A stretch of 64,000 bases of DNA from a phage, in the sequence record PZ445451.1; one strand, written 5' to 3'. Shown piece by piece: positions 46,645 through 61,899 of the stretch (the stretch's first letter is position 1; the number at the start of each line of letters is the position of its first letter). The notes under the pieces were generated by a model. It was not told the origin of the DNA, ran no database searches, and saw nothing but the letters and a program-made list of their open reading frames with translations. A program made the position numbers and the translations under genes.

Positions 46645-47529
46645 TTATTTTTGAATAGTTGACTTAATAAGGTCTTGCATAATACCACGGATTTCATTAA
46701 AGCACAGAAGGACAGATGCTTCAAAAGATCCTTCTTCGTCGTTAAAGTATTTAGGGAATTTAATGCCACTTAACTTAAATTCTTTATCAACAATAAAGTT
46801 AACGAAACCGTCATATTCCAGACCAATGGCAACAACGTGCTTACCATCTTCCATAAGTTCTACTGCACGAGATTCGTAAAGGGATTCTTTACTCCATACA
46901 ACCACACCTTCAGAATCTTCAAGTTTAATATAATTACCCAGGGTCAGTCGTTCAGCCTCATGTTCTTCTAAGATGGTATCAAAACCTTTAATAATGGCTT
47001 CTTCGTGTACACTAAACGGCAGAACTGGGAAAGTACCCAACACCTCACGAAGAAATACAGCAATATCTTCACTAATTTTCTTAGAACCATTAAGAACATA
47101 GGTAATACTGTTTTCCGTGTCTACAACAACATAGTTATAGAAGTCATCTGCCTCTGTTTCTGGAAGCAGAGAAAACACGATATCAGCCTCAATTGCTTTT
47201 TTACTTTCTTTGTCCAAGAAAAACTCTTTAGTAGGATTTGCAGCAATAAACTCTTGTTCCATCTCCTGGAGTTTTTCATTAAGAATGCGTTTAACTTTCT
47301 TCTTGTTAACTTTCTTAACAGACTGCCCTACTTTAATAACCTCTAAACCAGAGAACACTTTTACATAGGAACCATCATCTTCAAAACGAACAAGACCAAT
47401 GGTATGTGCTTGTTGCCCCTGTGCCACAACAAAATCCAGCGGTTTGTCTGTTACTGTGTTCAGTGCTGAAATAGACAGACCATCACCAGAAATCAGGGTT
47501 ACGCAAGATTTGAAATTTTTAGCAAACAT
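46645..47529 (-). CDS. RdgC-like recombination-associated protein
   Basis: Track ORF 46645-47550 trimmed to Met8 (GAGGAG RBS); SLLP ... DT.N ... PV.P.S pattern aligns with E. coli RdgC as recalled. Confidence 0.5.
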   Translation of the reverse strand: MFAKNFKSCVTLISGDGLSISALNTVTDKPLDFVVAQGQQAHTIGLVRFEDDGSYVKVFSGLEVIKVGQSVKKVNKKKVKRILNEKLQEMEQEFIAANPTKEFFLDKESKKAIEADIVFSLLPETEADDFYNYVVVDTENSITYVLNGSKKISEDIAVFLREVLGTFPVLPFSVHEEAIIKGFDTILEEHEAERLTLGNYIKLEDSEGVVVWSKESLYESRAVELMEDGKHVVAIGLEYDGFVNFIVDKEFKLSGIKFPKYFNDEEGSFEASVLLCFNEIRGIMQDLIKSTIQK

Positions 47530-47539
47530 AGTTTTCTCC

Positions 47540-47818
47540 TCAAATAACAACTACAAAATATTTTACACCATCATATTCGACAATATGATCAGGATATTTA
47601 AATCCTTTATAAGATTTACCAAACAGACTAACAGCCTCATTAGCTTTGTTTTGCGGATTACTCAACCACTGTTCTTCTGTGTAAAACTTAAATTCTGTTC
47701 TCTTACCTTCTTTTTCTAAACCAACAATTTCCTGTGTGATATCTTCAATACCTGCATTCTTCAAGGATTTGATTACCTGACGCAAACCGTGTTTAAAGAT
47801 ATCTTCTGCTGTTAACAT
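47540..47818 (-). CDS. hypothetical protein (92 aa)
   Basis: Track ORF. Confidence 0.55.
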   Translation of the reverse strand: MLTAEDIFKHGLRQVIKSLKNAGIEDITQEIVGLEKEGKRTEFKFYTEEQWLSNPQNKANEAVSLFGKSYKGFKYPDHIVEYDGVKYFVVVI

Positions 47819-47854
47819 AATACCTCCAATAAGCCCCCGAAGGGGCTTTATTTC

Positions 47855-48577
47855 TTAAGCAATGATTGCTGCGATATTAGGTTTAACAAAGGTAGATGGC
47901 TTCATAATTTTACCTTTGTCATCAAAGAATACATATACCTTTTGAACTTCGTTATATACAGCATGTACCCCAGTATAAGAACCTTCTGCACGATCTTTGC
48001 TTCGCATCTCGATAGCATCACACTCTTTTTCAAGAGCTTCAACAATATCTTTAGTTTCCCAAATAGCCAGGAGTTGCTTCTTGGTAGGATACTTGGACTC
48101 ATTGCTATTCAACACTTCACGCATAACCTTCTTCTCGTTATAAACAGAACGTACCAAAGTATCTCGTGCCATGCGTGTAAGTGTAAGAGACATTAGGGCA
48201 AATTGCAAGTCATTTTCTACCATTTTATCAAATTCAATGATAACATCGTAAATGTTTTCTGCCAGAACATCTCCTGTCGGCATTTCCAGAGCTTTATCAA
48301 CACCTTCTTTACCAAAGAACATAAATGCCAGGTAGGATGCTACCACAAAAATATCTGCTGCTGCATCAAGTAATTCAACGTGATCATTTTCCTGTGCTGC
48401 TGCTTGGAACTCTTTAAGTTCTTCTCGTACAAAAGAAAGTTGAGCTTCAAACATCTCTTGAGTAAATTCTGGAGTTACTCCACCACGTGCCTTAGCATTC
48501 CAAGCAACAATTTGATCGGCAGCTTTGATAAAGAAGCTATTGTCCACTTTTACTTGTTTGAAAAAATTCTCGATCAT
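47855..48577 (-). CDS. putative all-alpha NTP pyrophosphohydrolase (MazG-like)
   Basis: EELKEFQAA ... ELLDAAADIF acidic helices reminiscent of MazG; weak. Confidence 0.35.
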   Translation of the reverse strand: MIENFFKQVKVDNSFFIKAADQIVAWNAKARGGVTPEFTQEMFEAQLSFVREELKEFQAAAQENDHVELLDAAADIFVVASYLAFMFFGKEGVDKALEMPTGDVLAENIYDVIIEFDKMVENDLQFALMSLTLTRMARDTLVRSVYNEKKVMREVLNSNESKYPTKKQLLAIWETKDIVEALEKECDAIEMRSKDRAEGSYTGVHAVYNEVQKVYVFFDDKGKIMKPSTFVKPNIAAIIA

Positions 48578-48586
48578 TGTTTCTCC

Positions 48587-48778
48587 TTATTTAAAATATT
48601 GTTTTGTAAATTCCACCAGATATACAACAACTGCACCCATTTGTACACCTGTTGCACCGTAGACAATCATCAGACTAGCCTTCTGCCACCATGTTGGGTG
48701 AGGGAAAGTTGATGCGACAATTATACCACAAGCAACGATAGAAAGCAACACAAGAATCAAAATAACTTCAATGCTCAC
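48587..48778 (-). CDS. small integral membrane protein (63 aa)
   Basis: Two hydrophobic helices. Confidence 0.5.
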   Translation of the reverse strand: MSIEVILILVLLSIVACGIIVASTFPHPTWWQKASLMIVYGATGVQMGAVVVYLVEFTKQYFK

Positions 48779-48789
48779 TGCAACCTCCT

Positions 48790-49419
48790 TTATGTTTTAA
48801 TCTTGCCAAAATACAATACTTCAGCTTCCTGTCTTGCTGATATAGCATCTTCAATATCAATAAATGCTCCAAGACGGATATCTTTTCCTTGATAGGATAT
48901 ACGAGCAATCCATCTTTTTTCTTTCTCGCTCCACACAACACCTGTTTTACCAGAAGTGTTATTTTTCTGTTTTCGTGTATTGTATGACTGGACAGACCTT
49001 GTAGCCCAGCGACAATTTTCTTTACTGTAATCTTTTTCCGAGTCTATTCTGTCAAGAGATAAACCTTTAGGTCTATCTCCCATATCCTCAAAGAATGCAG
49101 AGAATGAATTTCTCCAAGCATCACAAACCTTAATACCACGACCACCGTAGTATTCAAAGTGAGTATTGTTTTTGTTATAGCATCTCCCTAACATAGCTTC
49201 CCACGATTTGTATGCTCCTGTTTGTGTTGTTTTCGGTCTACACTTGGAACAATAAGAACTTCTATTCTTCCTAAGTGTTTCCATAGTTACCGTGCAAATA
49301 TTACCACAATCACAAGAACAAGTAAAACGTCTTTTGCCATGTTTGTCCCTTTCAATCTCTTCTAAGACAGTATAACAACCGCATTTCTTACCTACAAGGT
49401 CTACTCTCTTGGCTCCCAT
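48790..49419 (-). CDS. HNH homing endonuclease with C-terminal AP2 DNA-binding domain
   Basis: LDRIDSEKDYSKENCRWATRSVQ (HNH_3-type) plus AP2-like GVVWSEKEKRWIARISYQGKDIRLGAF. Confidence 0.75.
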   Translation of the reverse strand: MGAKRVDLVGKKCGCYTVLEEIERDKHGKRRFTCSCDCGNICTVTMETLRKNRSSYCSKCRPKTTQTGAYKSWEAMLGRCYNKNNTHFEYYGGRGIKVCDAWRNSFSAFFEDMGDRPKGLSLDRIDSEKDYSKENCRWATRSVQSYNTRKQKNNTSGKTGVVWSEKEKRWIARISYQGKDIRLGAFIDIEDAISARQEAEVLYFGKIKT

Positions 49420-50516
49420 GTTCCCTCCACCATTTCCCGTAAACGGACACCTGTTGGTTTCGTAGGTATTCCACCATCGGAAAACTCTTCATACTCAATC
49501 TCAACAAATTTACCAATTAACATTTCGGCATTTTCTGCTTTACGATAGTTAATGGTTTCATCTGAATCCTTACGCATCAGGAATTCGACTACTTTACCAT
49601 TTTCCATCTCGCCTGTCAATACCCCGTCACCATTTTTATCACGCTTTGCACTTACCACTTTAACTTCAAGAGTCTGCCGTGGTTTACGTTTAATAACATC
49701 ATAAGAACGTTTATCAAACTCGTAAACACCTTGTGCGTTACGATACACCACACCTTCCGCTTTTTCACGTAGAGCTTTTGCATAGAATTCATCAAACTGC
49801 TCTTGGTTTTCAATGTATTCTGTATGTACTACACAAATAAGTTCATCTAAACCTTTATCTTCAACAACTTCTTTTAGAGCAGCTAAAACTTGAACCCTCT
49901 TCTCAAATGGTACAGATGGCACAGGAACATCATATACATAGTATTTAAGAAGCGGAGTGTTAGCATTATGCTTTTTCCACGCACTATTAATTTGTTGAAG
50001 GCTAAGGACACCCAAGCCAGCAAAAACTTCACCGTCAAGAGGATGACCAACTACTTCTTTAATGAAGGTTGGAATTTCTTTCCAGTGAGGTGGAAGTTTA
50101 TATACCTCCCCAGCTTTAGATAAACATTCACCTTGCATGTTAATCATTGAACGTAAACCATTCAATTTATATTGTGCATAACCTGGGAACAAAACACGAT
50201 CAGCATAATCTTTATAATCCTGACATTTCATGGGTGTGGAAGGAACATGGTTTTCAGCTTCCTCTTTTGTTTTATAATACCCATTCTTAAGTTGCTTTGT
50301 CCATTTGGCAAGAGCTTCTATTTCAGCTTGTTCTTCTGCTGTTGTTTCATTTGAGCGACCAACATTTTTAGGTTCTGCTGTATAAGATTTGCTAGTAATC
50401 TTTCCACCTAATTGACCATGAGCAACAGTTACAACACTACCTTCGGTATAGACTGACCACTGTTTAATTTTACCTGTAGAAGTTTTACCATATAATGTAG
50501 GATTAGTTTGTTTCAT
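49401..50516 (-). CDS. putative polynucleotide ligase (covalent nucleotidyltransferase, K-x-N-G-x-R motif)
   Basis: Track ORF 49401-50564 trimmed to Met17 (GGAGG RBS); YKLNGLR resembles ligase motif I KxDGxR. Confidence 0.45.
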   Translation of the reverse strand: MKQTNPTLYGKTSTGKIKQWSVYTEGSVVTVAHGQLGGKITSKSYTAEPKNVGRSNETTAEEQAEIEALAKWTKQLKNGYYKTKEEAENHVPSTPMKCQDYKDYADRVLFPGYAQYKLNGLRSMINMQGECLSKAGEVYKLPPHWKEIPTFIKEVVGHPLDGEVFAGLGVLSLQQINSAWKKHNANTPLLKYYVYDVPVPSVPFEKRVQVLAALKEVVEDKGLDELICVVHTEYIENQEQFDEFYAKALREKAEGVVYRNAQGVYEFDKRSYDVIKRKPRQTLEVKVVSAKRDKNGDGVLTGEMENGKVVEFLMRKDSDETINYRKAENAEMLIGKFVEIEYEEFSDGGIPTKPTGVRLREMVEGTWEPRE

Positions 50517-50706
50517 CTTTAACCTCCAGTTGCGAAAGAACCCATTTAGCCATTTCAATTTCACCGTGTAGTCTGCCTAGTTCATAGGCATCATCAATAT
50601 TACCACCAGTGTAATCATCCACCATAAAGTAAGGATCTTCGCTACTATTAGGTGCGTTTGCAATTCTCGTTAGTTCTTCAATAAATGTCATAGTTACCCT
50701 TACCAA
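50503..50706 (-). CDS. hypothetical protein (67 aa)
   Basis: Track ORF. Confidence 0.5.
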   Translation of the reverse strand: MVRVTMTFIEELTRIANAPNSSEDPYFMVDDYTGGNIDDAYELGRLHGEIEMAKWVLSQLEVKDETN

Positions 50707-50924
50707 TTATACACAAGAGTTTGAATCTCTTCCATCAAATCTTCAAGATCTGTATCAACGTATTCAGAAGATGTTGCCATAAAGTATGTAATCATTGTGA
50801 ACCCTTCCGAAGAAAGAGCATCAAGAATATCATTAAACATATCTTCCATTTCAGTATTCTCACCAAATGAGAATAACATTTGTTGATCTTCGCTTACACC
50901 TTTAACATAGATAGCTGTACTCAT
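50700..50924 (-). CDS. hypothetical acidic protein (74 aa)
   Basis: Track ORF. Confidence 0.5.
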   Translation of the reverse strand: MSTAIYVKGVSEDQQMLFSFGENTEMEDMFNDILDALSSEGFTMITYFMATSSEYVDTDLEDLMEEIQTLVYNW

Positions 50925-50927
50925 ATA

Positions 50928-51248
50928 TTAATCCTTAAGACGTTCATTTAAATCTGCAATAACATCACCTAAATCTTCACATTCCAGTGTTAACTCTGAA
51001 ACTTGTCCACTCAAATAACAAACTTCTTCATTTAGATCTGAAATAATGTTTTCTAATGAATCTACTTGATCCTCATATGAACGTTTTGTTTCTTCAAGTT
51101 CTTCCGTAAGATCATTAATCAAACGGAGCAAAGATAAGATATAGCCGTCTCCTGTCTCGTTCCTCCACTCACTTCCGTAGCGATAAATAATAATTTCACC
51201 ATTATCGACTACTGTAAAATACTTGCCTTCACCAGAATAAATTTCCAT
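50928..51248 (-). CDS. hypothetical coiled-coil protein (106 aa)
   Basis: Track ORF. Confidence 0.55.
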   Translation of the reverse strand: MEIYSGEGKYFTVVDNGEIIIYRYGSEWRNETGDGYILSLLRLINDLTEELEETKRSYEDQVDSLENIISDLNEEVCYLSGQVSELTLECEDLGDVIADLNERLKD

Positions 51249-51257
51249 ACACTCTCC

Positions 51258-51662
51258 TTATTGTAGCTTAAGTGAACTGCGAAGACGTTTCTCTTGCTGA
51301 TCACGAATATGTTGTGGAACCTCATGAATTGAGTCGTTACCGTGCCTATTTTCAACAACTAAAGAGATAACTTGATAACCAAACTCTTCAGCAAGAGTTA
51401 AATAAGGTTTAAGTTCTTTCTCTGTGGTTGAAGTGTTAGAGACAATAATCTTTTTAGTATTAGATGCCATAGCATCACGAACAATACTCTGACACCATGC
51501 GTGTGCTTTACCTACATTCTCTGGCTTCCAATCGTAAACACCACTTTCTGTGTAATGATATTGATCTGCCTCACAGATAGGCCAATAACCTTCAGAAATA
51601 ATTTCTGCTACTGTAGATTTACCTGCACCTGAAACACCACGTAAAATGATAAGTTGTTTCAT
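51258..51662 (-). CDS. polynucleotide 5'-kinase (T4 Pnk kinase-domain-like P-loop protein)
   Basis: MKQLIILRGVSGAGKSTVAEII resembles the T4 Pnkp N-terminus ([23 protein letters not shown]); IIVSNT matches the downstream motif. Confidence 0.65.
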   Translation of the reverse strand: MKQLIILRGVSGAGKSTVAEIISEGYWPICEADQYHYTESGVYDWKPENVGKAHAWCQSIVRDAMASNTKKIIVSNTSTTEKELKPYLTLAEEFGYQVISLVVENRHGNDSIHEVPQHIRDQQEKRLRSSLKLQ

Positions 51663-52595
51663 TTAGCCTCCAAAGAAGTTTTCTATTTCTTTACGTCGCT
51701 CTTGTGGATCTAGAGCAGCCCATTGAACCTTCGTAAAGTTATTTCGAAGCCATTCTAGCAAAGTATAATATTCTTCGTCAACAATTTGTTTAGCATTGTT
51801 TGGGTTGTCCCAAATCATATCCCACTTCTTATTGCCACCACGCATAAGGAACTTCTTAGCAAGATAGTATGGTGACTTAATCTTTAAGAGTAAGTTAAAC
51901 GGATAGTTTGTTTCACGAACAACAAAGCCTTCGTGTCTACAATGTTTAGACATTTCAACAACATCTGAAAATTTAATCATCGGATAAACTTCAGGACGTT
52001 TAAATTTTGTAATAGATGCAATCCCATCAAGAACACCTTCAGGTAACATGAAACTTGTCCCATCAAGATTTTGAATTCTTGCTCCAATTAAGTATGCACC
52101 TGGTTCTTCTTCGACAATATGTGGATCAGAAGGATCACAGATTTCAAAAAGAAAAGTTGCTTTTGCACTTTCTGTCCACTTAATGAAATACTCTATGTCG
52201 TCACACTCGGAAACAATACGGTTCTTTGCCATAATTGCAAAATCTGATTCTAGGCTCCCTGTTGTTGATACAACAAGTTGCCCTTTGTACACACCTACAG
52301 ATGCCATAAAACCGTTTACTTTACGGACAGCATCTACAAGTTCGTCTGCTGGAAGATCTGTACCATTCTCAAAACGATTAAAGATTTTAGTAAAAGGCCA
52401 AATAACAACATTGTCTTCTGAGTCAACAACCAACCCACGGCAATCTAGAAGTCGTTTGTCAACGTTCCACAAATTATCCCAGAATACATTGTTTTTGTAT
52501 TTAAGTACAGCAAGACCAGCATACTCTCCAGATTTAACTTCTTTTTTATGCACTAAACCTTTTGCAATCAGGTCATCACAATTGAACTTAGCCAC
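51663..52595 (-). CDS. RNA ligase (T4 Rnl1-like nucleotidyltransferase)
   Basis: LLDCRGLVV ... PFTKIFNRFEN parallels T4 Rnl1 LECRGIMF ... PMEKFFNLNEN; lysine motif KVNG; stop/start contiguous with the kinase gene. Confidence 0.6.
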   Translation of the reverse strand: MAKFNCDDLIAKGLVHKKEVKSGEYAGLAVLKYKNNVFWDNLWNVDKRLLDCRGLVVDSEDNVVIWPFTKIFNRFENGTDLPADELVDAVRKVNGFMASVGVYKGQLVVSTTGSLESDFAIMAKNRIVSECDDIEYFIKWTESAKATFLFEICDPSDPHIVEEEPGAYLIGARIQNLDGTSFMLPEGVLDGIASITKFKRPEVYPMIKFSDVVEMSKHCRHEGFVVRETNYPFNLLLKIKSPYYLAKKFLMRGGNKKWDMIWDNPNNAKQIVDEEYYTLLEWLRNNFTKVQWAALDPQERRKEIENFFGG

Positions 52596-52596
52596 C

Positions 52597-53148
52597 TTAA
52601 TCTCCTTTGATTATCTTATGATGGTCTACAACAACAATATCACGCTTATCCATAATAGAGATGATTTCGTCAAAATGCAAGATTTTTCCGTGTGCATCCC
52701 AACCAACATCCAACATCTTCCCATACAAATGATCAGGGAATGATCCGTGAGAGTGTCCGTGTAGCATGATTGATCCATGCCCTTGTTTATTCCAGGCAGC
52801 CATAGGGTAATGGCTTAAGACGAAAAACAGCTTCTGATATTTCACTTCGTCATAATAAACCACTTCTCCATACTCTGCAAGCACTTTTCTGTGTTTACTG
52901 TAATCATGGTTCCCAACACAGTAAGTAATATTCCCTTGGAGACGGGAAGCAATCTTACGGGTATCTTCTTCAGTCCCGAAACAGAAGTCCCCAAGATGGT
53001 ACATCTTTACTCCTGGTGTTGTGGCACATTTATTCCATGCTTCGATCAGTGCTTCTGTCATATGCTCCATATTTTCCCACGGGCGATATTCAGGAGCAAA
53101 TTCTCGGATACGTTTGTGCATAAAATGCAAATCACTTGTAATAAACAT
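52597..53148 (-). CDS. calcineurin-like metallophosphoesterase (candidate RNA 3'-phosphatase / 2',3'-cyclic phosphodiesterase)
   Basis: DLHF, GDFCFG and GNHDY metallophosphatase motifs; stop/start contiguous with the RNA ligase gene. Confidence 0.7.
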   Translation of the reverse strand: MFITSDLHFMHKRIREFAPEYRPWENMEHMTEALIEAWNKCATTPGVKMYHLGDFCFGTEEDTRKIASRLQGNITYCVGNHDYSKHRKVLAEYGEVVYYDEVKYQKLFFVLSHYPMAAWNKQGHGSIMLHGHSHGSFPDHLYGKMLDVGWDAHGKILHFDEIISIMDKRDIVVVDHHKIIKGD

Positions 53149-53507
53149 TAGTATAATCCCTCGCTGAATAGTTCACTATCGTGACCATTTCTTTCATAAT
53201 TAATTTGTTTGGCGTTATCTGCAATGATATAAGCATCTTTGCGACTCCACCAGTTATAATACTGATCAATAAACCCTTGATTATCAGGTAAGCAAAACAG
53301 TTTATCAATCAATCCTGCATCTTTTAAAACATTAAGTTGTGCAGATAGTACAGGATTTGCATGCCTAACACAAGGAATAATTAACTCTTCGCCATTGTTG
53401 AGCATATACTTATTCGCAGCGCAGACTATAACACGTTGAGCATAGTGATCCTCACCAATCCAAGTAAGAGGTTGGTAACAAATATCATGTTGATTAGTAG
53501 CGCACAT
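53148..53507 (-). CDS. hypothetical protein (119 aa)
   Basis: Track ORF 53148-53510 (TTG) trimmed to the adjacent ATG. Confidence 0.55.
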   Translation of the reverse strand: MCATNQHDICYQPLTWIGEDHYAQRVIVCAANKYMLNNGEELIIPCVRHANPVLSAQLNVLKDAGLIDKLFCLPDNQGFIDQYYNWWSRKDAYIIADNAKQINYERNGHDSELFSEGLY

Positions 53508-53653
53508 CAATTTTCTTCATACTCTTCGTCTGTATGTATATCGTAAAAGCAATCTTCAAAAGTTGCAAGTGCTTTTTCTACATCGGGCCAATGGTTAGTG
53601 TGTTTGTATATATAAAACCCATCCCCTTCATCTACCCAAATAACATAAAGCAT
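53507..53653 (-). CDS. small acidic protein (48 aa), not in track
   Basis: ATG at 53653 (minus) after GGAGGTG RBS; stop overlaps the next start (TGATG). Confidence 0.4.
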   Translation of the reverse strand: MLYVIWVDEGDGFYIYKHTNHWPDVEKALATFEDCFYDIHTDEEYEEN

Positions 53654-53662
53654 AACACCTCC

Positions 53663-54037
53663 TTAATAGTTAACACGTTTAATTTCAACACCATAGGATG
53701 AAATAAAATTTTCCTTAGCTAACATATATTTACCAGCAGCAGAAGGGTTTGATGTATGGACATAGATAGTTTTAAGAGCATCCCATTCACCCGCATACAA
53801 CATACATTCTACGTCTAAGAATGCATGATATCCTTCCTGATCTTCTCCAAGATCATTATCGAAGTGTATCTCTGAGATATTATTGAAATTATCTTCATCT
53901 GAAACAAAAGATAACCAATCCTCAAAAGATTTTAACCAAATGGCATCCTCATAACCATAATCTTTAGGATCTCTTAAATCGTCTAACCAAAGAATTTTAG
54001 CCACTATCAACCCCCTTCCTGTTTCTCTTCTTTCCAA
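53663..54037 (-). CDS. hypothetical protein (124 aa)
   Basis: Track ORF. Confidence 0.55.
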   Translation of the reverse strand: MERRETGRGLIVAKILWLDDLRDPKDYGYEDAIWLKSFEDWLSFVSDEDNFNNISEIHFDNDLGEDQEGYHAFLDVECMLYAGEWDALKTIYVHTSNPSAAGKYMLAKENFISSYGVEIKRVNY

Positions 54038-54198
54038 GTTTTACCATTATCTACCAACTTCTTAGAAACAGCAAATCTTTCTCCATTGATATAAAACAAA
54101 TAAAGAATAAAGGATTTTCCTATAGTTACAATATCTACTACTTCTACACGCTTCACACCTTGCATGTATTTGGCTTTACCTGAATAAATAAGGAACAT
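54007..54198 (-). CDS. hypothetical protein (63 aa)
   Basis: Track ORF. Confidence 0.45.
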   Translation of the reverse strand: MFLIYSGKAKYMQGVKRVEVVDIVTIGKSFILYLFYINGERFAVSKKLVDNGKTWKEEKQEGG

Positions 54199-54476
54199 TA
54201 TTTATTCCTTTTGTTGTTGATCACATCTAAAGCTGTGTAAGGTTTGTTTGTACCGCTGTATTCAAGAATAATTGGTGCATGTTCATAGACAAACTCAAAA
54301 GTACCATATACAGAATCTGCAACTGAAATAAGCATTTCAGTGCCTTCATCGTTCTTAATTAATGAAAACCTTGCCCCTGGTTTATTGAGCACTTCATATT
54401 TCTTACCTGCTGTCAGCAAACCTGAATACCATTCATTTTGCACAACAGACAAACACTTCAGATAGGTTTTTCTCAT
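54198..54476 (-). CDS. hypothetical protein (92 aa)
   Basis: Track ORF. Confidence 0.55.
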   Translation of the reverse strand: MRKTYLKCLSVVQNEWYSGLLTAGKKYEVLNKPGARFSLIKNDEGTEMLISVADSVYGTFEFVYEHAPIILEYSGTNKPYTALDVINNKRNK

Positions 54477-54814
54477 TTCTTTTTGCTCCTTCTTTTAGGC
54501 TTCTCGTATAAACCTAACACAGCAGACTCTTTTGCACAGATAGGAACTGACTTCATTCCTCGTTTTTTGGCTTCTGGTAGATTCAAAACCCACCAGCCAA
54601 ACCAATACAATTCATCTTCTGTGAAAGGATCTGCCATAGGATCTGCATCACGTTCTTCAAATCTAGCAAGAGCTTCTTCTATCTTCTCTATTGGAGTATC
54701 AAAGACAAAAGCCTCTGTATCAAATTTTTGTTTCTTAGGAGCGGCTTTTGCCGCCCCATCTTTAGATGCGTGCTTTGTTACGGATCGCTTCTTCGGTGTT
54801 TTCGCCATCAACAA
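54473..54814 (-). CDS. hypothetical protein with basic Lys-rich N- and C-termini (113 aa)
   Basis: Track ORF. Confidence 0.5.
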   Translation of the reverse strand: MLMAKTPKKRSVTKHASKDGAAKAAPKKQKFDTEAFVFDTPIEKIEEALARFEERDADPMADPFTEDELYWFGWWVLNLPEAKKRGMKSVPICAKESAVLGLYEKPKRRSKKK

Positions 54815-55001
54815 CCTCCATGCGGTGTAAGAAATCTTGCTGGAATCGCCAATACTGTTGACCAGTCCTTACATCTTCGTAGATCACAACAGGATCAAAT
54901 ACTTTAGATACACCTGCTGGTTTAGGGAAGCCAACTACACGATATAAACCACCTTTGCTAATACAAGAATATGTTACATCAGTTAAAATTTCTTTTTTCA
55001 T
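54762..55001 (-). CDS. hypothetical protein (79 aa)
   Basis: Track ORF. Confidence 0.5.
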   Translation of the reverse strand: MKKEILTDVTYSCISKGGLYRVVGFPKPAGVSKVFDPVVIYEDVRTGQQYWRFQQDFLHRMEVVDGENTEEAIRNKARI

Positions 55002-55195
55002 TTCTTAATAAACTCCAATACAGGTACGTGATCAGCAGTCAAAGTTACACAATTGTAACTTACCTTTTCAACTTCAGAGAATGCTTCAACCCAAAGTAAG
55101 AAATTCTCTTTAGCTTCTTCATAATTCAATGTTGACTTAACAACATGGAACTCACCAAGAATTACTCTATAGATTGTTTGCATAGTTTGATTCAT
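54998..55195 (-). CDS. hypothetical protein (65 aa)
   Basis: Track ORF. Confidence 0.5.
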   Translation of the reverse strand: MNQTMQTIYRVILGEFHVVKSTLNYEEAKENFLLWVEAFSEVEKVSYNCVTLTADHVPVLEFIKK

Positions 55196-55261
55196 TTATT
55201 TTTCCTTTGTTTAAAATGTGTTAAACAATCGCAAATGCTTGTGACGCACTTTGTGACCCCA

Positions 55262-55630
55262 CTAATTAACGTCAGCACTATGATTGTTGAGAGTATAGGA
55301 TACTCCATCGCCCAAGTCAACATGAATCTCAACTCCTAACTGTCTTTCTAATGGTAAACGTTTTGAGAATTGATAATTACAAAGTTTACAATCTAAGTCA
55401 AGCAACTCATGTTTGCTTAAGCCTGGAATGATAACTTTGCTTCCCACTGTCCACTCAATACCTTCAAAGTTATCTCTTCTTTTCAAAATGTCAAGTAAGA
55501 AGATGATTTGTTGCCATTCCGTAGACAAGTCTTCTTCATAGAACGCAGAACAAAAAGTTTTATCATCGTAGAAAGCATACATTATGCCTCCATCTATTGT
55601 TTCACTTCTAACGTACCGTGTGACCCTCAT
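55262..55630 (-). CDS. hypothetical protein (122 aa); first gene of the minus-strand block
   Basis: Track ORF; GGAGGGAATAATG RBS. Confidence 0.6.
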   Translation of the reverse strand: MRVTRYVRSETIDGGIMYAFYDDKTFCSAFYEEDLSTEWQQIIFLLDILKRRDNFEGIEWTVGSKVIIPGLSKHELLDLDCKLCNYQFSKRLPLERQLGVEIHVDLGDGVSYTLNNHSADVN

Positions 55631-56040
55631 TATTCCCTCCTATACGGCTCTGTAACGAGCTAATGGCCTTTAAGATATGCAATCACCTTACCTCACAGTA
55701 AAACTCGTTACAATCGTTTTTAGGAGGTTCAGGTTGTACTTAAAAATAATCCAAAAAGGTGTTGACAAACGCAAAAAAGTATGCTACCCTAACCCCCGAA
55801 AAACGCCGAGCGCAGCGAGTGGGGTGTTATCTAATCTTGTGATACATGATCTAACAGACAACTGAGTAGTCTACATATAGCACTATGTTATGTCTCTAAT
55901 ACTAACACACATACTCTATACTAACAATAGATTCTTTATTAATTTTATTATTAATTAAATAATAAATATCTATTGACTTTAGATCTATCTGTAGGTAGAG
56001 TAGAGAACATAAAGTCCTAACTCAACTAAGGAGATAAAGA

Positions 56041-56934
56041 ATGAAAGTTAGTATTCTACATGGTGTTGATTGCTATGTTACTGATGTAGACGTTAAAGTG
56101 TTTACATTCTCTGGTGGAGAACAACATGTTCAATTAGATACGAATCTATCAGGTTTCAATCATGCTACAGACAGAATCTTACTCTCTTTAGAAGTAAGAT
56201 CTGCTAAAGACTTGATGACTTTGGTTATGACTAAGAATGCATTGGACAATATGCTATATCATAAACCATATTGTGTTGATTTGCTCATGTTGTATGTGCC
56301 ATATGCACGACAAGACAGAGTGTGTGAACCTGGGGAAGCATTCGGAGTTAAAGCATTTGCTTCTATAATTAATTCATTAAATTTCTCACGTGTTATAGTT
56401 GCTGATCCACATAGTGATGTTACTCCAGCAGTGTTTGACAGACTCTGTGTAATACCTCAAGAAGAGATTGCTTACGAAACTTTAAAGTGGAAGTTACGTA
56501 TGGAGAATTTTGCTCTTGTTAGTCCTGATGGTGGTGCTCTTAAGAAAATATTTAAATTATCTAAGAAAATGTCTTTAGATGTGTTCTGTGCAGAGAAGGT
56601 TAGAGATACTGCAACAGGTGCTATTGTTCGTACAGACATTTCTGTACAGGATTTCAATAAGCGTAACCTAATGATCGTAGATGATATCTGTGACGGCGGT
56701 AGAACTTTTATTGAATTGGCTAAAGTGCTACGTGCTCGTAACGCAGGTAAGATTGAGTTATATGTTACACACGGTATCTTTTCTAAAGGTCTTAAAGAGT
56801 TAAGTGAGCACTTTGACTGCATTCATTCTCTTAATGTGTGGGAAGATAACATCCAAGAAGATTCCGGTGTTCTTGTTAAGAATCAGTCGGATTTGCAACA
56901 ACAAATTGTATCTCCATACGTGTGGAATTTTTAA
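56041..56934 (+). CDS. ribose-phosphate pyrophosphokinase family protein (PRPP synthetase or Adps-type ADP-ribose pyrophosphate synthetase)
   Basis: YVPYARQDR, VSPDGG and MIVDDICDGGRT match the Prs ribose-5-P loop and PRPP-binding motif. Confidence 0.85.
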   Translation: MKVSILHGVDCYVTDVDVKVFTFSGGEQHVQLDTNLSGFNHATDRILLSLEVRSAKDLMTLVMTKNALDNMLYHKPYCVDLLMLYVPYARQDRVCEPGEAFGVKAFASIINSLNFSRVIVADPHSDVTPAVFDRLCVIPQEEIAYETLKWKLRMENFALVSPDGGALKKIFKLSKKMSLDVFCAEKVRDTATGAIVRTDISVQDFNKRNLMIVDDICDGGRTFIELAKVLRARNAGKIELYVTHGIFSKGLKELSEHFDCIHSLNVWEDNIQEDSGVLVKNQSDLQQQIVSPYVWNF

Positions 56935-57005: not shown

Positions 57006-58739
57006 ATGAATATTTTTGCACCTTTTGCTACTGATTGGTATAAACCTGGTCACAAGCAGATGTACAACCAAAATACAAAACTCATTTTCTCTAACTTAAC
57101 TCCTCGTAATGATAAAAACTTTGCAAACTACGCAGAACGTGAAGCACGTGGTGTAATTGTTTTAGGTATTCGTCGAGCAGTTACTGATGCTCTTGTAACT
57201 ATGTGGGATAGCTTCTTTAAAATGTCTCGTAGTGCAGCAGTAAATAAGTTTTATCGTATGTCTAAAAATGCATTAGGTGCTTCTGCTCCTTCTGCTGAAT
57301 GTTGGGGAGAATTGCACGATTTAGGTTATCTTCCGCTGGAAGTTCGATCTCTGCCAGAAGGTGTTTTGTGTCCTATTGGTGTTCCTGTGTTTACTGTGCA
57401 TAATACTTTAGAAAAATTCTTTTGGTTAACTAACTATGTGGAAACACTATTGTCAGATGAAACTTGGAAGACAATGACTAATGCTACAGCAGCTTTTCAG
57501 TATAAGCGTATTGCTATGGCATATGCGATGGCAACGTGTGATAATATTGATCACGTTAACTTCCAGTGTCATGATTTTAGCCTACGTGGTTTAAGTAATA
57601 TCGAAGATGGTTATAAGAGTGGTATCGCTCATTTGGCATCTTTCACAGGAACAGATAACATTCTGGCTATTGAGACTGTGCATGATTATTATGGTATTGA
57701 TTATGATCAGTTTGTTGCAGGTTCTATTCCGGCAACAGAACATTCAGTAGCAACGACTAACATTGGAGCTATTGTTGAAGATCTGAAGAAACATTTCCCA
57801 CATCTTAAAGATGATGTTGATGGGCTTCGTTATGTAGCAGAGAAAGAGTTTCTTCGCCGCTATATTGAAGAAATTGTTCCAGAAGGTTTTTGTTCATATG
57901 TAGCAGATTCTTATGATTACTGGGCTGTCTTGACTCGCATTCTGGTAGAATTGAAAGAATCCATTATGTCACGAAATGGTCGTCTTGTTATTCGTCCAGA
58001 TTCAGGAGATCCGGTTAAAGTTGTTGCAGGATACAATGTTGAATCTTTTGCTAACTATGAAGACCTTTTAAATAATGGTATTGCTACAGCCACTGAAGTA
58101 GTTCATTTGGTTGATGTTAATAAATATTACAATGTTCTTCAGGATTGCAGTGTTGCTGATTGTATTGATGAAACTTATGAGATTCCTTATTGTGAAGCAG
58201 TAGGTTCTATTCAAATCCTTTGGGAAGTGTTTGGTGGTACTATCAACCGAAAAGGCTACAAGGTTCTTGATCAGCACATCGGTATGATTTATGGTGATTC
58301 TATTACTGTTGAACGAGAACACGAGATCTTACGCCGACTGAAGAAGAAAGGTTTTGCAGCTTCCAATATTGTATTTGGTGTTGGTAGTTATACTTATCAG
58401 TTCAATACACGAGATACTTTTGGTTTTGCTGTTAAAGCAACAGGTAGTATCATCGGTGAACACGAAATTTTGGTAAGTAAGGAGCCTAAAACTGATCCTG
58501 GTAAACGATCTGCAAAAGGTTTTATTAAGGTTGTTAAGGATACAAATGGTAAACTTTCTCTTGTGGATAATCTTTCTTTTAAAGATATCCAAGATGAAGA
58601 CAATGAGTTAAAAGTTATCTTCAGGGATGGTACGGTTATTACACCACAAGTAGAAGGACGTGATGAAACATTTACTGATATCCGTAACCGTGTTGATGTA
58701 GAGGTTCTTCGTACTATGGGAACCATCCAGGTTGACTAA
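57006..58739 (+). CDS. nicotinamide phosphoribosyltransferase family protein (NadV/NAMPT or Namat-type)
   Basis: TDWYKPGH, PEGVLCPIGVPVFTVHNT, FWLTNYVETLL, HDFSLRGLSN and FTGTDNILA align with conserved NAMPT blocks. Confidence 0.85.
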   Translation: MNIFAPFATDWYKPGHKQMYNQNTKLIFSNLTPRNDKNFANYAEREARGVIVLGIRRAVTDALVTMWDSFFKMSRSAAVNKFYRMSKNALGASAPSAECWGELHDLGYLPLEVRSLPEGVLCPIGVPVFTVHNTLEKFFWLTNYVETLLSDETWKTMTNATAAFQYKRIAMAYAMATCDNIDHVNFQCHDFSLRGLSNIEDGYKSGIAHLASFTGTDNILAIETVHDYYGIDYDQFVAGSIPATEHSVATTNIGAIVEDLKKHFPHLKDDVDGLRYVAEKEFLRRYIEEIVPEGFCSYVADSYDYWAVLTRILVELKESIMSRNGRLVIRPDSGDPVKVVAGYNVESFANYEDLLNNGIATATEVVHLVDVNKYYNVLQDCSVADCIDETYEIPYCEAVGSIQILWEVFGGTINRKGYKVLDQHIGMIYGDSITVEREHEILRRLKKKGFAASNIVFGVGSYTYQFNTRDTFGFAVKATGSIIGEHEILVSKEPKTDPGKRSAKGFIKVVKDTNGKLSLVDNLSFKDIQDEDNELKVIFRDGTVITPQVEGRDETFTDIRNRVDVEVLRTMGTIQVD

Positions 58740-59485: not shown

Positions 59486-59561
59486 GGTTCCATAGCTCAC
59501 TGACGAGAGCGAACACCTCATAAGTGTCGAGGGCAGGGATTGTAACCCTGGGGAACCACCA
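59486..59561 (+). tRNA. tRNA-Met/Ile2 (anticodon CAT), atypical T-loop
   Basis: Hand-folded cloverleaf: 6/7 acceptor pairs, D-stem GCTC/GAGC, anticodon loop CTCATAA, T-stem CAGGG/CCCTG, loop ATTGTAA (non-canonical), CCA encoded. Confidence 0.5.
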
Positions 59562-59592
59562 TTTAAAAGGAGGTGTTATGCATCTCCTATAT

Positions 59593-59678
59593 GCAAGTGT
59601 GGTGGAATTGGTGATACACATTGTGCTTAAAACGCAACGCTTAAATGATTGAGGGTTCGAATCCCTCCACTTGCACCA
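59593..59678 (+). tRNA. tRNA-Leu (anticodon TAA), type II
   Basis: Acceptor GCAAGTG/CACTTGC, anticodon loop CTTAAAA, 13-nt variable arm, T-arm GAGGG-TTCGAAT-CCCTC, A73, CCA encoded. Confidence 0.75.
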
Positions 59679-59680
59679 AC

Positions 59681-59786
59681 GCCTAGTAGGGTATTTGGTA
59701 ATTCCGAGGCCATCAAAGCCTGAAAAATATGTTAGACCGCTTTGTCTAACTAAATACGAAATATGGTTCGATTCCATAACTAGGCT
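59681..59786 (+). ncRNA. aberrant tRNA-like element (~105 nt; perfect acceptor plus canonical T-arm but no standard D/anticodon arms)
   Basis: GCCTAGT (59681-87) pairs perfectly with ACTAGGC (59779-85); T-arm TATGG-TTCGATT-CCATA; internal hairpin GTTAGAC-CGCTTT-GTCTAAC. Confidence 0.3.
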
Positions 59787-59860
59787 TCAATTTAAATAGT
59801 AATTTTAGTAAAAAATATCTTGACATTTACTTAGTTTTTTTGTTATAGTCGTTATGAAAA

Positions 59861-59942
59861 CGGGGTGTATCTCACCTGACTTCTAATCAGGCGTTAACCG
59901 AGTAATTGGAGTATGCAGGTTCGAATCCTGTCACCCCGGCCA
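59861..59942 (+). tRNA. tRNA-Arg(TCT)-like RNA lacking a D-arm
   Basis: 7 bp acceptor, canonical anticodon arm CCTGA-CTTCTAA-TCAGG, canonical T-arm GCAGG-TTCGAAT-CCTGT, CCA encoded; only 7 nt between acceptor and anticodon stem and a 23-nt insert before the T-arm; TTGACA promoter at 59820. Confidence 0.45.
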
Positions 59943-60005
59943 AAAAGTTTTAAAAACTGCTTGACAAGCAAGATAGTTTTATGTTAGATTTAAAGTATGA
60001 TAACT

Positions 60006-60095
60006 GGAAGGTAGGGCGCAGCGGTGCGCAACCAGGTTTGAACCCTGGCCCATTGTAGCGATACGGTGATGGTTCGACTCCATTATCTTCCTCCA
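60006..60095 (+). tRNA. tRNA-Ser (anticodon TGA), type II
   Basis: Acceptor GGAAGGT, 3 bp D-stem, anticodon arm CCAGG-TTTGAAC-CCTGG, 19-nt variable arm, T-arm GATGG-TTCGACT-CCATT, CCA encoded. Confidence 0.7.
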
Positions 60096-60101
60096 AATTC
60101 A

Positions 60102-60266
60102 ATGAGTGATTTTATGAATTATAAAACTATTGGACAGGTTGTTACCGGAGTTAAGATTGTAAATAATAAAGTTGTTTATGAGTATTCTAATCTTCAACAA
60201 TCTGAAGATGGTAAGAATATTCGTATGGTAAAAGCAGAACAAAAAGATTCCGGTTGTTTTGAATAA
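60102..60266 (+). CDS. small protein embedded in the tRNA cluster (54 aa)
   Basis: Track ORF 60066-60266 trimmed to the first ATG beyond tRNA-Ser; weak RBS. Confidence 0.35.
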   Translation: MSDFMNYKTIGQVVTGVKIVNNKVVYEYSNLQQSEDGKNIRMVKAEQKDSGCFE

Positions 60267-60274
60267 TTAAGAAC

Positions 60275-60360
60275 GGTAGATTGGTGAAATGGTAGCCACA
60301 ACAGTTTGCTAAACTGTCGTCGGAAACGGCGTGTAGGTTCAAGTCCTACATCTACCGCCA
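60275..60360 (+). tRNA. tRNA-Ser (anticodon GCT), type II
   Basis: Acceptor GGTAGAT/ATCTACC, anticodon arm ACAGT-TTGCTAA-ACTGT, 15-nt variable arm, T-arm GTAGG-TTCAAGT-CCTAC, G73, CCA. Confidence 0.75.
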
Positions 60361-60495
60361 AGTTATCTTTAATGTAGCTTGTAATCTTACTTTAGCAGAG
60401 TAAATCTTCGGCAAGTGGCGGTAACCACTTTACCGATACCCCAATACTTCATAGCTAAGTGCCGCAAACACTGGCTATTTTAAAGATAATTTTAT

Positions 60496-60570
60496 ACATC
60501 GTTAGCCAAGCGGTAAGGCACTTGACTTTTAATCAAGGGAGCGAAGGTTCGAATCCTTCACGATGTACCA
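60496..60570 (+). tRNA. tRNA-Lys (anticodon TTT)
   Basis: Acceptor ACATCGT/ACGATGT, anticodon arm CTTGA-CTTTTAA-TCAAG, T-arm GAAGG-TTCGAAT-CCTTC, CCA. Confidence 0.7.
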
Positions 60571-60575
60571 AACAC

Positions 60576-60662
60576 GTAGGTATCGCATAGCGGCAATTGC
60601 TGGAGACTGTAAATCTCCTGCCCTTCGGGGCTTCGTTGGTTCGAGTCCAACTACCTGCACCA
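60576..60662 (+). tRNA. tRNA-Tyr (anticodon GTA), type II
   Basis: Acceptor GTAGGTA/TACCTGC, anticodon arm GGAGA-CTGTAAA-TCTCC, 16-nt variable arm, T-arm GTTGG-TTCGAGT-CCAAC, A73, CCA. Confidence 0.75.
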
Positions 60663-60669
60663 AATTAAA

Positions 60670-60754
60670 GATGGATTGGCCTAGTGGTTGGGCGACGGAC
60701 TGTTAATCCGTGAACGAAAGTTCTAGCAAGGTTCAAATCCTTGATCCATCGCCA
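60670..60754 (+). tRNA. type II (Ser-like scaffold, G73) tRNA carrying an Asn anticodon GTT
   Basis: Acceptor GATGGAT/ATCCATC, 3 bp D-stem, anticodon arm ACGGA-CTGTTAA-TCCGT, 15-nt variable arm GAACGAAAGTTCTAG, T-arm CAAGG-TTCAAAT-CCTTG, G73, CCA. Confidence 0.6.
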
Positions 60755-60833
60755 AATAGTGCTTGTAGAGTTAATAGAAACCTCTAGAATTTTCTAGAAT
60801 TGTAGGTATCAAATCCTACCAAGCAAATATTTT

Positions 60834-60908
60834 GCTCCTATCGTATAACGGCTATTACGGTTGCCTTGTAAGCAACTTATCAGGGTTCGAGTCCTTGTGG
60901 GAGCACCA
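60834..60908 (+). tRNA. tRNA-Thr (anticodon TGT)
   Basis: Acceptor GCTCCTA/TGGGAGC, anticodon arm GTTGC-CTTGTAA-GCAAC, T-arm CAGGG-TTCGAGT-CCTTG, CCA. Confidence 0.7.
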
Positions 60909-60925
60909 ATTTTAACTCTAAAGGA

Positions 60926-61255
60926 GTGTATGTGACAGAAAAAGAGTTAGAGAAATATTTTAATATCAATGTTTTCGATGGTTTTGATGATATCGAAGAT
61001 GTTGAAAGATATTATGAAGTAGAGTTAGATAAGGATAACATTGTAATTCTTTCTGCCACTTATGATTGTGCATATTATGAAGGCGAATCTCACGTTTATT
61101 TTTATGATATGAAAACATCTTTGTTTTATGAAGTACACGCATATCATTGTTCTTGTTATGGTTTAGAAGGTCAGTGGGAACCTGAAGAAATAGGTGATTT
61201 GGATTTTACTATTGCATATCTAAACAGACGTGGTGCATCTACTATTTTAAAATAA
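60926..61255 (+). CDS. hypothetical acidic protein (109 aa) inside the tRNA cluster
   Basis: Track ORF (GTG start) with AAGGAG RBS. Confidence 0.6.
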   Translation: MYVTEKELEKYFNINVFDGFDDIEDVERYYEVELDKDNIVILSATYDCAYYEGESHVYFYDMKTSLFYEVHAYHCSCYGLEGQWEPEEIGDLDFTIAYLNRRGASTILK

Positions 61256-61310
61256 ATATCAAAAGCCTCTTGACAAAGGGGCTAATAATATGTTAGAGTA
61301 ATATTGTTAA

Positions 61311-61385
61311 GCGGGTATAGTGTTAATGGTAGCATATGAGGTTTCCACCCTCCAGGTGCAGGTTCAAGTCCTGTTACTCGCTCCA
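61311..61385 (+). tRNA. tRNA-Gly (anticodon TCC)
   Basis: Acceptor GCGGGTA/TACTCGC, anticodon loop TTTCCAC, T-arm GCAGG-TTCAAGT-CCTGT, CCA; TTGACA promoter at 61270. Confidence 0.65.
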
Positions 61386-61484
61386 AGATTATTTAAATGG
61401 AATCGCTAGAGAAAATTTCTCTTTTCGCTCATGGTTTTCTCCTTCAAACTCTAGCGGTTCTTTTTAAATGATTTTTTAGTTTAT

Positions 61485-61559
61485 TGGAGATTAGCCTAGT
61501 GGGAAGGCAACGGCCTTTGAAGTCGTGATGACTAGGTTCGATTCCTAGATCTCCAGCCA
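61485..61559 (+). tRNA. tRNA-Gln (anticodon TTG)
   Basis: Acceptor TGGAGAT/ATCTCCA, anticodon arm ACGGC-CTTTGAA-GTCGT, T-arm CTAGG-TTCGATT-CCTAG, G73, CCA. Confidence 0.7.
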
Positions 61560-61566
61560 ATATTTA

Positions 61567-61642: not shown

Positions 61643-61647
61643 AATTT

Positions 61648-61722: not shown

Positions 61723-61799
61723 AATAACACCATCCAAGGAGTAGACTTGGTTAACTGTCAATATCACATTGAGGCTTCTTACAGTGGTGTACTTATTAT

Positions 61800-61884: not shown

Positions 61885-61899
61885 AATTATTACAGATTG

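Follow-up and report, generated by a model that had tools for sequence, protein, structure and literature searches.

A kinase, RNA ligase and metallophosphoesterase cassette as predicted core of an RNA end-repair pathway in an Escherichia phage

Introduction

Repair of tRNA is the classic answer of phages to anticodon-nuclease defenses, and tRNA-targeting defense is now known to be widespread. In bacteriophage T4, tRNA repair by Pnkp (gene pseT) and Rnl1 (gene rnlA) counters the anticodon nuclease PrrC. This T4 pair is the closest experimentally known system to the subject of this report, a cassette of three minus-strand genes at positions 51258-53148 of a 64,000-nucleotide stretch of phage DNA (PZ445451.1; this whole stretch is called the window in the following). 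The three genes code for a predicted polynucleotide kinase, a predicted RNA ligase and a predicted phosphoesterase, hereafter termed the kinase, the ligase and the phosphoesterase. The kinase domain of T4 Pnkp (PseT residues 1-152) and the adenylyltransferase domain of T4 Rnl1 have homologous counterparts in the cassette, the latter with motifs I, III, IV and V and with equivalents of R54 and K75; pseT and rnlA are also located near each other (1.4 kb apart), and the predicted logic is the same, i.e. both RNA ends are healed and then sealed. In contrast to T4, the kinase of the window is a free-standing protein of 134 residues that comprises no HAD phosphatase and no equivalent of R38, the predicted 3'-end enzyme is a separate metallophosphoesterase, and the ligase is 64 residues shorter, with no detectable counterpart of the tRNA-specificity C-domain of T4 Rnl1.

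For the replacement of the HAD domain there is a precedent, since the phosphatase of Clostridium thermocellum Pnkp (CthPnkp) is a metallophosphoesterase. CthPnkp and the Capnocytophaga Pnkp1-Rnl-Hen1 system resemble the cassette as modules of a Pnk-type kinase, a binuclear metallophosphoesterase and an ATP-dependent ligase; however, these consist of one multidomain polypeptide each or form stable complexes with the Hen1 methyltransferase, and the phosphoesterase of the window is placed in the aq_1665 family, with no sequence match to the CthPnkp or lambda-phosphatase type. The fungal/plant Trl1 (Rnl6 clade) and Tpt1 system shares the fold of the ligase, and a kinase, a cyclic phosphodiesterase and a ligase activity. 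Trl1, in contrast, unites its activities in a single polypeptide, where the cyclic phosphodiesterase is of the 2H type and the kinase depends on GTP, and it needs a 2'-phosphate and the separate Tpt1, whereas the ligase of the window has a short and unmatched C-domain. The sole solved sequence relative of the phosphoesterase, aq_1665 of Aquifex aeolicus (PDB 1XM7), has the same motif layout but is a bacterial structural-genomics protein with no known link to RNA repair.

The type of gene neighborhood has also been described by computation. Iyer, Burroughs, Anantharaman and Aravind (2022, Viruses 14:1977) defined a type-2, sirtuin-centered RNA-repair neighborhood in Escherichia phage V5 (rV5) and Proteus phage Mydo, comprising a tRNA ligase, a cREC (cyclic-phosphate-processing receiver-like) protein, a nucleotide kinase, MazG, "occasionally" a calcineurin-like phosphoesterase, and a sirtuin. 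All five non-sirtuin components are present within positions 47855-54004 of the window on one strand, and the orthologs in Mydo and in phage FV3 are 41-74% identical. The sirtuin gene of the window, however, is located 31 kb away and is not coupled to the cassette, and across related loci the phosphoesterase is near-constant rather than occasional, with cREC and sirtuin in the minority.

Thus, the finding is already known in its outline: the three genes are named in GenBank, and the cluster type was published in 2022, which makes it a real but ordinary one. Added here are the kinase-ligase-phosphoesterase triad as the conserved core, the recurrent fusion of aq_1665 family members to RNA-repair domains, and a ligase without the T4 C-domain. 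We consider it likely that the triad forms the core of a phage pathway that heals and seals RNA ends, with T4-like chemistry that would be carried out by three separate small proteins.

Sequence source and gene organization

Positions 51000-54100 of the window match Escherichia phage PaulScherrer (BASEL collection, Bas60; MZ501100.1) at 100% identity; this phage is classified as Stephanstirmvirinae, Justusliebigvirus (phi92-like). Coordinates of MZ501100.1 convert to those of the window by subtraction of 87100; the final 675 bases of the window (63326-64000, spanin genes) correspond to the start of MZ501100.1, and the window thus spans the ends of the linear record. One mismatch to MZ501100.1 was found, at position 48652.

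The three open reading frames (ORFs) of the cassette are closely joined (Table 1). The ATG of the kinase gene directly abuts the stop codon (TAA) of the ligase gene and is preceded by GGAGG at a distance of 5 nucleotides; the GTG of the ligase gene is located one nucleotide past the stop codon (TAA) of the phosphoesterase gene and has AAGGAG upstream; and the start of the phosphoesterase gene overlaps the end of the next gene upstream (TAATG). From these stop/start junctions it follows that the three genes are a translationally coupled operon. They are named "polynucleotide kinase" (bas60_0242), "RNA ligase" (bas60_0243) and "putative phosphoesterase" (bas60_0244) in MZ501100.1, and each of the three ORFs has hundreds to thousands of homologs.

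A search of the cassette proteins against NCBIfam gave no useful match for any of them. A promoter/terminator scan of positions 47500-56200 gave no excess over shuffled sequence (32 vs. 29.5 promoters, and 5 vs. 4.0 terminators), and the scan is therefore uninformative on transcription units, except for a bidirectional hairpin at 47823-47848, just past the MazG-like gene.

Kinase

The kinase has a P-loop of the form G9-x4-G14-K15-S16 (G9-V-S-G-A-G-K15-S16), a putative catalytic aspartate (D33), and an invariant H113-x-V-P lid motif. Searches with the single sequence gave generic P-loop matches only (Pfam AAA_33, E = 5e-10), and the protein matched PHROG 505 'polynucleotide kinase' at 1.6e-9. 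When a profile of the 29-member family was searched against the PDB, polynucleotide kinases ranked first, with Capnocytophaga Pnkp1 as best sequence match (6e-9) and with T4 Pnk matched over its full length (8e-9); the further matches comprise the tRNA kinase PSTK, the kinase domain of CthPnkp, and mammalian PNKP. In a profile alignment (hhalign) to T4 PseT, the probability was 98.1%, and the aligned part was confined to the PseT kinase domain; the kinase carries no fused 3'-phosphatase domain (134 residues; the phosphoesterase is encoded by a gene of its own).

The AF2 model of the kinase has a predicted local distance difference test (pLDDT) score of 92.1. The top 20 PDB matches of this model in Foldseek are all Pnk (kinase domains of CthPnkp and T4 Pnk), with template modeling (TM) scores of 0.74-0.79, and the kinase domain of CthPnkp is the best structural match (TM 0.77-0.79). 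The P-loop and D33 are invariant in the family, with D33 kept in both sets of homologs inspected (29 and 33 sequences), and D33 pairs with T4 D35 in the HMMER and hhalign alignments alike. Asp35 of T4 Pnkp is the catalytic aspartate that activates the 5'-OH. Membership of the kinase in the T4/Clostridium Pnk clade, as judged from profiles and from the predicted fold, is solid.

RNA ligase

The ligase matches Pfam RNA_lig_T4_1 (PF09511) at 8e-14 (52.4 bits, with a cut-off of 28.3) over profile positions 2-227 of 227, and it also matches PHROG 562, the T4 gp63 family. The invariant catalytic residues, as judged over five diverse and 32 database homologs, are K92, N94 and G95 (motif I, K92-V-N-G95), E151 (motif III), E222 and G223 (motif IV), and K238 and K240 (motif V, K238-I-K240); a further motif string is G166-A-Y-L-I-G. 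These motifs align with their counterparts in T4 Rnl1, with K92 paired to T4 K99. R53 and K70, also invariant, pair with T4 R54 and K75, the residues that define the Rnl1 type according to a 2019 paper; I71 pairs with T4 F76, and the invariant F72 with T4 F77.

A search of PDB sequences with the single ligase sequence yielded nothing meaningful, hence a family profile was needed, which matched T4 Rnl1 at 1.5e-10. Similarly, tblastn failed to link the ligase family to T4 Rnl1, as the divergence is too great. The hhalign comparison with T4 RnlA gave a probability of 96.9%, with ligase residues 47-271 aligned on T4 residues 48-265. With the AlphaFold model (pLDDT 92.1), Foldseek ranked T4 Rnl1 (2.4e-13) and fungal Trl1-LIG (about 5e-13; TM 0.62-0.64) first, followed by archaeal Rnl3 (1e-9), Rnl2 (3e-6), Rnl5 (4e-5), and DNA ligases (6e-5 or worse), i.e. 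the latter are ranked at least eight orders of magnitude below T4 Rnl1 and Trl1. From these matches, the protein is assigned to the tRNA-ligase branch of the RNA ligases, with a predicted strand-joining activity.

For the C-domain of T4 Rnl1 (residues 266-374, 109 residues), no aligned counterpart was found in the ligase: the hhalign alignment ends at T4 residue 265, and the HMMER alignment at T4 residue 249. The C-terminal part of the ligase is a short helical module (about residues 242-307, about 66 in number), with the invariant basic residues K247, K248 and R252 located after motif V. RNA ligase clades have been defined by their C-domains by Shuman's group, and by this criterion the ligase would be termed Rnl1-like, not an Rnl1 in the strict sense.

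The ligase family is represented in 705 GenBank phage records; phages of the rV5-like, phi92-like and Pseudomonas PAK_P1-like groups are among them. When 185,579 genomes of prokaryotic species were scanned, only seven loci were detected, mostly on metagenome-assembled contigs; the family looks phage-restricted, and bacterial operons are unusable as independent evidence.

Phosphoesterase

The phosphoesterase matches PHROG 547 at 2.5e-55. Its six metal-binding motifs (D6-x-H8, G53-D54, G79-N80-H81, H113, G131-H132, and H134) are invariant in 21 diverse homologs. The single sequence scored below threshold for Pfam Metallophos_2 (20.4 bits, with a cut-off of 27), and hence its assignment to the metallophosphoesterases is based on these motifs and on the match to PDB 1xm7 (aq_1665), which reached E-values of 6e-7 for the single sequence and 1.6e-23 for the profile. 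Besides aq_1665, the profile matched only GpdQ (3e-3) and MJ0936 (9.5e-3) among all PDB sequences, and no Pnkp or lambda phosphatase chain was matched at E up to 0.01. The protein is therefore predicted to be a binuclear metallophosphoesterase of the aq_1665 family, distinct from the lambda-phosphatase type of CthPnkp.

A second, unrelated metallophosphoesterase gene is located 26 kb from the cassette (25197-25940, minus strand; 247 residues; Pfam Metallophos, 4.9e-13); homologs of its product were found at only three of the 84 ligase loci described below.

The original prediction, which had been made from the DNA sequence alone, stated that three contiguous minus-strand genes with touching stops and starts encode a P-loop protein resembling the T4 Pnkp kinase domain, an Rnl1-like RNA ligase with a KVNG lysine motif, and a calcineurin-like phosphoesterase. 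All of this was borne out: the gene arrangement by the ORFs and their junctions, the kinase by profile, hhalign and fold matches, the ligase by Pfam, profile and Foldseek matches and the invariant K92, and the phosphoesterase by its invariant metal motifs and the profile match to 1xm7.

Gene linkage and fusions across related loci

The linkage of the three genes was examined at 84 loci (80 from IMG/VR and four from GenBank) with ligases that are 38-97% identical to the ligase of the window; ORFs within 8 kb of the ligase gene were taken as neighbors and searched with iterated hidden Markov models (HMMs). The kinase was found near the ligase at 78 of the 84 loci (median gap, 0 bp), and the phosphoesterase at 70 (median gap, 235 bp). 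An ATP-dependent DNA ligase was present at 46 loci, nicotinamide phosphoribosyltransferase (NAMPT) at 40, ribose-phosphate pyrophosphokinase (PRS) at 38, at least one tRNA gene at 38, a MazG-like protein at 15, a sirtuin at 13, and cREC at 12. The complete triad is present at 65 of the 84 loci, in 63 cases on a single strand, and at least six gene orders of the triad were observed; the association has therefore outlasted rearrangement. The genus profiles of ligase and kinase among GenBank phages are nearly identical (705 and 622 records, respectively). By these counts, it is the triad of kinase, ligase and phosphoesterase rather than the pair of sirtuin and cREC that makes up the conserved core of the neighborhood.

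The kinase and the ligase are encoded in one ORF at 13 loci, nine of which represent full-length proteins of about 430 residues, and PHROG 8238 covers both the kinase and the ligase domain. An artifact of the iterated HMMs was rejected as an explanation for these fusions, as the kinase of the window alone matches the N-terminal 120 residues of the full-length ORFs at 1e-28 to 1e-32.

The phosphoesterase is linked to RNA repair by fusions of another kind. P0241, which is its best match (55% identity) in a search of 1.84 billion representatives, carries a fused RNA ligase of Pfam PF09414. The ligase part of this fusion protein of 524 residues (locus L099, 6001-7575; JGI 3300004634 contig, 58 kb) is of the Rnl2/5 type, with KIHGTNG as motif I, and the protein is encoded in a cassette with the order cREC, a gene for 135 residues, the phosphoesterase-ligase fusion, an Rnl1-like ligase, kinase, and DNA ligase, which is syntenic with the cassette of the window. 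This phage thus has genes for two distinct RNA ligases next to each other. A placement of the ligase part of P0241 in the ligase family of the window was rejected (no similarity in BLASTP, and a match to Pfam PF09414), and so was a gene-calling artifact, since the locus translates to the full protein within the syntenic cassette. Two further homologs of the phosphoesterase are fused to a HAD_SAK_2 "Swiss Army Knife RNA repair" domain. In Listeria phage A511 (L088, NC_009811.2, 12050-22592), genes for RtcB, a NADAR-domain protein, an Rnl2-type ligase and a member of the same phosphoesterase family are found within 5.4 kb, and this cluster looks like a counterpart of the module in a phage of Gram-positive bacteria that uses other ligases. 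Hence, ties of the phosphoesterase to RNA repair recur, even though its family is the wider one. Together, the fusions suggest a stable complex of kinase, ligase and phosphoesterase.

Proposed pathway and alternative readings

The proposal that the triad heals and seals RNA ends is well supported by computation; it is based on the family assignments, the preserved catalytic motifs, the layout of the operon, the linkage kept across loci, and the fusions of the genes. Metal-independent host ribonucleases (anticodon nucleases and toxin RNases) would cut tRNAs or other RNAs and thereby produce ends with a 2',3'-cyclic phosphate and with a 5'-OH. The kinase would then transfer a phosphate from ATP to the 5'-OH, with D33 as general base and with K15 and S16 holding the nucleotide; the binuclear metallophosphoesterase would open the cyclic phosphate and strip off the phosphate to yield a 3'-OH; and the ligase, adenylylated on K92, would transfer AMP to the 5'-phosphate and seal the break. 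The cREC protein may assist in opening the cyclic phosphate, and the neighboring tRNA and NAD+ salvage genes may serve the same counter-defense purpose. Within this scheme, we infer each enzymatic activity, RNA as the substrate, and the division of labor at the 3' end; the role of the phosphoesterase as a healer of 2',3'-cyclic-phosphate or 3'-phosphate ends is presumed and is the weakest step. The claim of the original prediction that the three families jointly cover the activities needed for tRNA repair is in agreement with the motifs, the linkage and the fusions, as far as predicted activities go. Its second claim, separate polypeptides and a metallophosphoesterase in place of the HAD phosphatase, holds as a description of the gene layout, but the unusualness that it implied was overstated in view of the CthPnkp precedent, the GenBank names, and the published neighborhood.

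Several observations weigh against this proposal. No function was found in the literature for aq_1665 (1XM7), the only solved relative of the phosphoesterase, and likewise no biochemical or genetic work on members of the three families; the BASEL paper, too, is silent on these genes. The phosphoesterase family reaches much further than that of the ligase (1318 vs. 705 phage records; 11459 representative clusters) and is found without a nearby ligase in Staphylococcus and Vibrio phages, and the lineage with kinase-ligase fusions (L049, L053, L055, L057-L059, and L061-L066) has no phosphoesterase of the aq_1665 type within the available flanks. In the kinase, the predicted binding details are not canonical at the positions of the T4 arginines that bind substrate and ATP: the position of T4 Arg38 is occupied by H36, which is variable across the family; R106 aligns with T4 Arg122 and is invariant among closer relatives only, being lost in distant members; and the position of T4 Arg126 is occupied by D110. 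Where these T4 arginines differ, the kinase has the invariant H113-x-V-P motif. Since the ligase has no tRNA-specificity C-domain of the T4 kind, tRNA as its substrate is an assumption. Finally, a different chemistry at the 3' end would be in keeping with the presence of cREC, of a sirtuin and of genes for NAD+ salvage.

Such a chemistry was put forward for the rV5/Mydo neighborhoods by Iyer et al. (2022). In a route similar to that of Trl1/Tpt1, cREC and/or the metallophosphoesterase would leave a 2'-phosphate together with a 3'-OH, the ligase would use or tolerate the 2'-phosphate, possibly by binding it with the patch formed by K247, K248 and R252, and the sirtuin would, after sealing, remove it from the junction with NAD+, while NAMPT and PRS would replenish NAD+, and the metallophosphoesterase and the MazG-like enzyme would clear ADP-ribose by-products. 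We regard this route as unlikely, though not far-fetched. It would account for cREC in the same operon, for a sirtuin in the genome (whose gene adjoins the ligase gene in FV3 and Mydo), and for the frequent presence of NAMPT (40/84) and PRS (38/84) near the ligase; moreover, the ligase model fits Trl1-LIG as well as T4 Rnl1, and the three basic residues are located in the region of the RxxR site for the 2'-phosphate mimic in Trl1, whereas the aligned stretch of T4 Rnl1 is without such basic residues. However, the match of KK..R to RxxR is positional only and does not derive from an alignment, the frequencies of cREC and sirtuin (12-13 of the 84 loci, vs. 70-78 for phosphoesterase and kinase) mark these as accessories rather than core, the sirtuin gene is remote from the cassette in this phage, the literature shows such activities for no sirtuin or cREC protein, and NAD+-depleting defense systems would also account for the NAD+ salvage genes. 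If true, the route would provide the first functions for aq_1665 phosphoesterases, for cREC and for this sirtuin clade, and it would set the ligase clade apart from Rnl1 through Rnl6.

The NAD+ salvage genes would also fit a reading in which the RNA ligase is a mere neighbor, and in which the kinase and the phosphoesterase act on nucleotides, on NAD+/ADP-ribose metabolites (for example, in the phosphorylation of nicotinamide riboside or the degradation of cyclic nucleotides that serve as immune signals), or, jointly with the DNA ligase encoded nearby, on DNA ends. The NAMPT/PRS genes directly follow the kinase gene in phage PAK_P1, and in Staphylococcus phage phiSA12 the phosphoesterase family adjoins PRS and NAMPT with no ligase present; the kinase profile gave weak matches to nicotinamide riboside kinase (3e-4), the kinase was termed only a 'nucleotide kinase' by Iyer et al., and an ATP-dependent DNA ligase is found within 8 kb at 46 of the 84 loci. 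Against this, polynucleotide kinases consistently outrank small-molecule kinases in both the sequence and the fold matches of the kinase, the kinase is tied to the RNA ligase by fusions and by matching phyletic profiles, relatives of the phosphoesterase carry fusions with an RNA ligase or with a HAD domain for RNA repair, and a DNA ligase domain was present in none of the fusion proteins examined; we therefore hold this reading to be quite improbable. That the ligase should be mainly a catalyst of tail-fiber attachment, the second activity of T4 gp63, is suggested by the name of PHROG 562 and of many GenBank records ('RNA ligase and tail fiber protein attachment catalyst'), but this name is inherited from T4 gp63 through homology of the ligase domain only, the C-terminal region of the T4 protein has no counterpart in the ligase, and the gene is found among genes for nucleic-acid metabolism, not structural genes, and is closely linked or fused to the kinase; the chance that it applies here is minute.

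The end-healing and sealing pathway, by way of its ligase family in about 700 sequenced phages, would represent a common counter-defense module. Since the prediction has already been made public, the module is of modest practical value; the evidence from fusions and synteny, however, provides firmer ground for picking these proteins for biochemistry.

Neighboring genes and other features of the window

The coordinates of the cassette and of further features are summarized in Table 1.

Table 1. Genes of the RNA-repair cassette and further features of the window
Feature	Position	Strand	Remarks
Sirtuin (SIR2)	19900-20712	-	Pfam SIR2, 2.8e-22; 31 kb from cassette; only SIR2 gene found
MazG-like (PRA-PH) pyrophosphatase	47855-48577	-	240 residues; Pfam PRA-PH, 3.2e-7; end of minus-strand block
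HNH homing-type endonuclease	48790-49419	-	Overlaps 3' end of DNA ligase gene by 19 nucleotides
ATP-dependent DNA ligase	49401-50516	-	Pfam DNA_ligase_A_M, 4e-11; PHROG 114, 4e-76; 1.1 kb from RNA ligase
Kinase (bas60_0242)	51258-51662	-	134 residues; ATG start; P-loop GVSGAGKST
RNA ligase (bas60_0243)	51663-52595	-	310 residues; GTG start; motif I 'RKVNGF' with K92
Phosphoesterase (bas60_0244)	52597-53148	-	183 residues; motifs DxH / GD / GNH / H / GH / GHxH
PHROG-839 protein	53148-53510	-	120 residues; PHROG 839, 5e-47; same operon, overlaps phosphoesterase start
48-residue ORF (bas60_0246)	53507-53653	-	Between PHROG-839 gene and cREC
cREC	53663-54004	-	Pfam PF20274 cREC_REC, 3e-14; same operon, two genes upstream
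PRS	56041-56934	+	Pfam and GenBank annotation; divergent from cassette
NAMPT	57006-58739	+	Pfam and GenBank annotation; NAD+ salvage
15 tRNA genes	59486-62200	+	ARAGORN; including Lys-UUU, Tyr-GUA, Asn-GUU

Upstream of the phosphoesterase gene, the cREC protein is a predicted metal-independent phosphoesterase, a prediction that is also all the literature offers on its activity, and it would be an accessory member of the cassette. The PHROG-839 protein has no Pfam or NCBIfam match. Homologs of this protein were found at only three of the 84 ligase loci, and of the 48-residue ORF at only one, and both were therefore rejected as core parts. Some related records label a gene in the stretch 53148-53510 as 'anti-restriction nuclease'.

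Downstream, the cassette is followed by three small genes and by the genes for the DNA ligase, the HNH endonuclease, and the MazG-like pyrophosphatase. As the phage encodes this separate ATP-dependent DNA ligase, it is not reliant on the RNA ligase for sealing of DNA. HNH genes recur beside the ligase genes at 16 of the 84 related loci.

The original prediction had also placed a tRNA set of the phage itself about 6 kb away, and the tRNA cluster was indeed found at a distance of 6.3 kb; it would supply tRNA replacement beside tRNA repair. The prediction made no mention, on the other hand, of cREC, the MazG-like gene, the genes for NAD+ salvage or the remote sirtuin gene.

After the sirtuin gene, a minus-strand gene extending to 21254 codes for a protein of 184 residues that is named 'putative aminoacyl-tRNA synthetase' in GenBank and has no Pfam match, and the same holds for a second gene with this label at 26277-26849. 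At about 32105-35366 (minus strand), the GenBank annotation table lists a dTDP-rhamnose biosynthesis set of RmlA-, RmlB-, RmlC- and RmlD-like genes.

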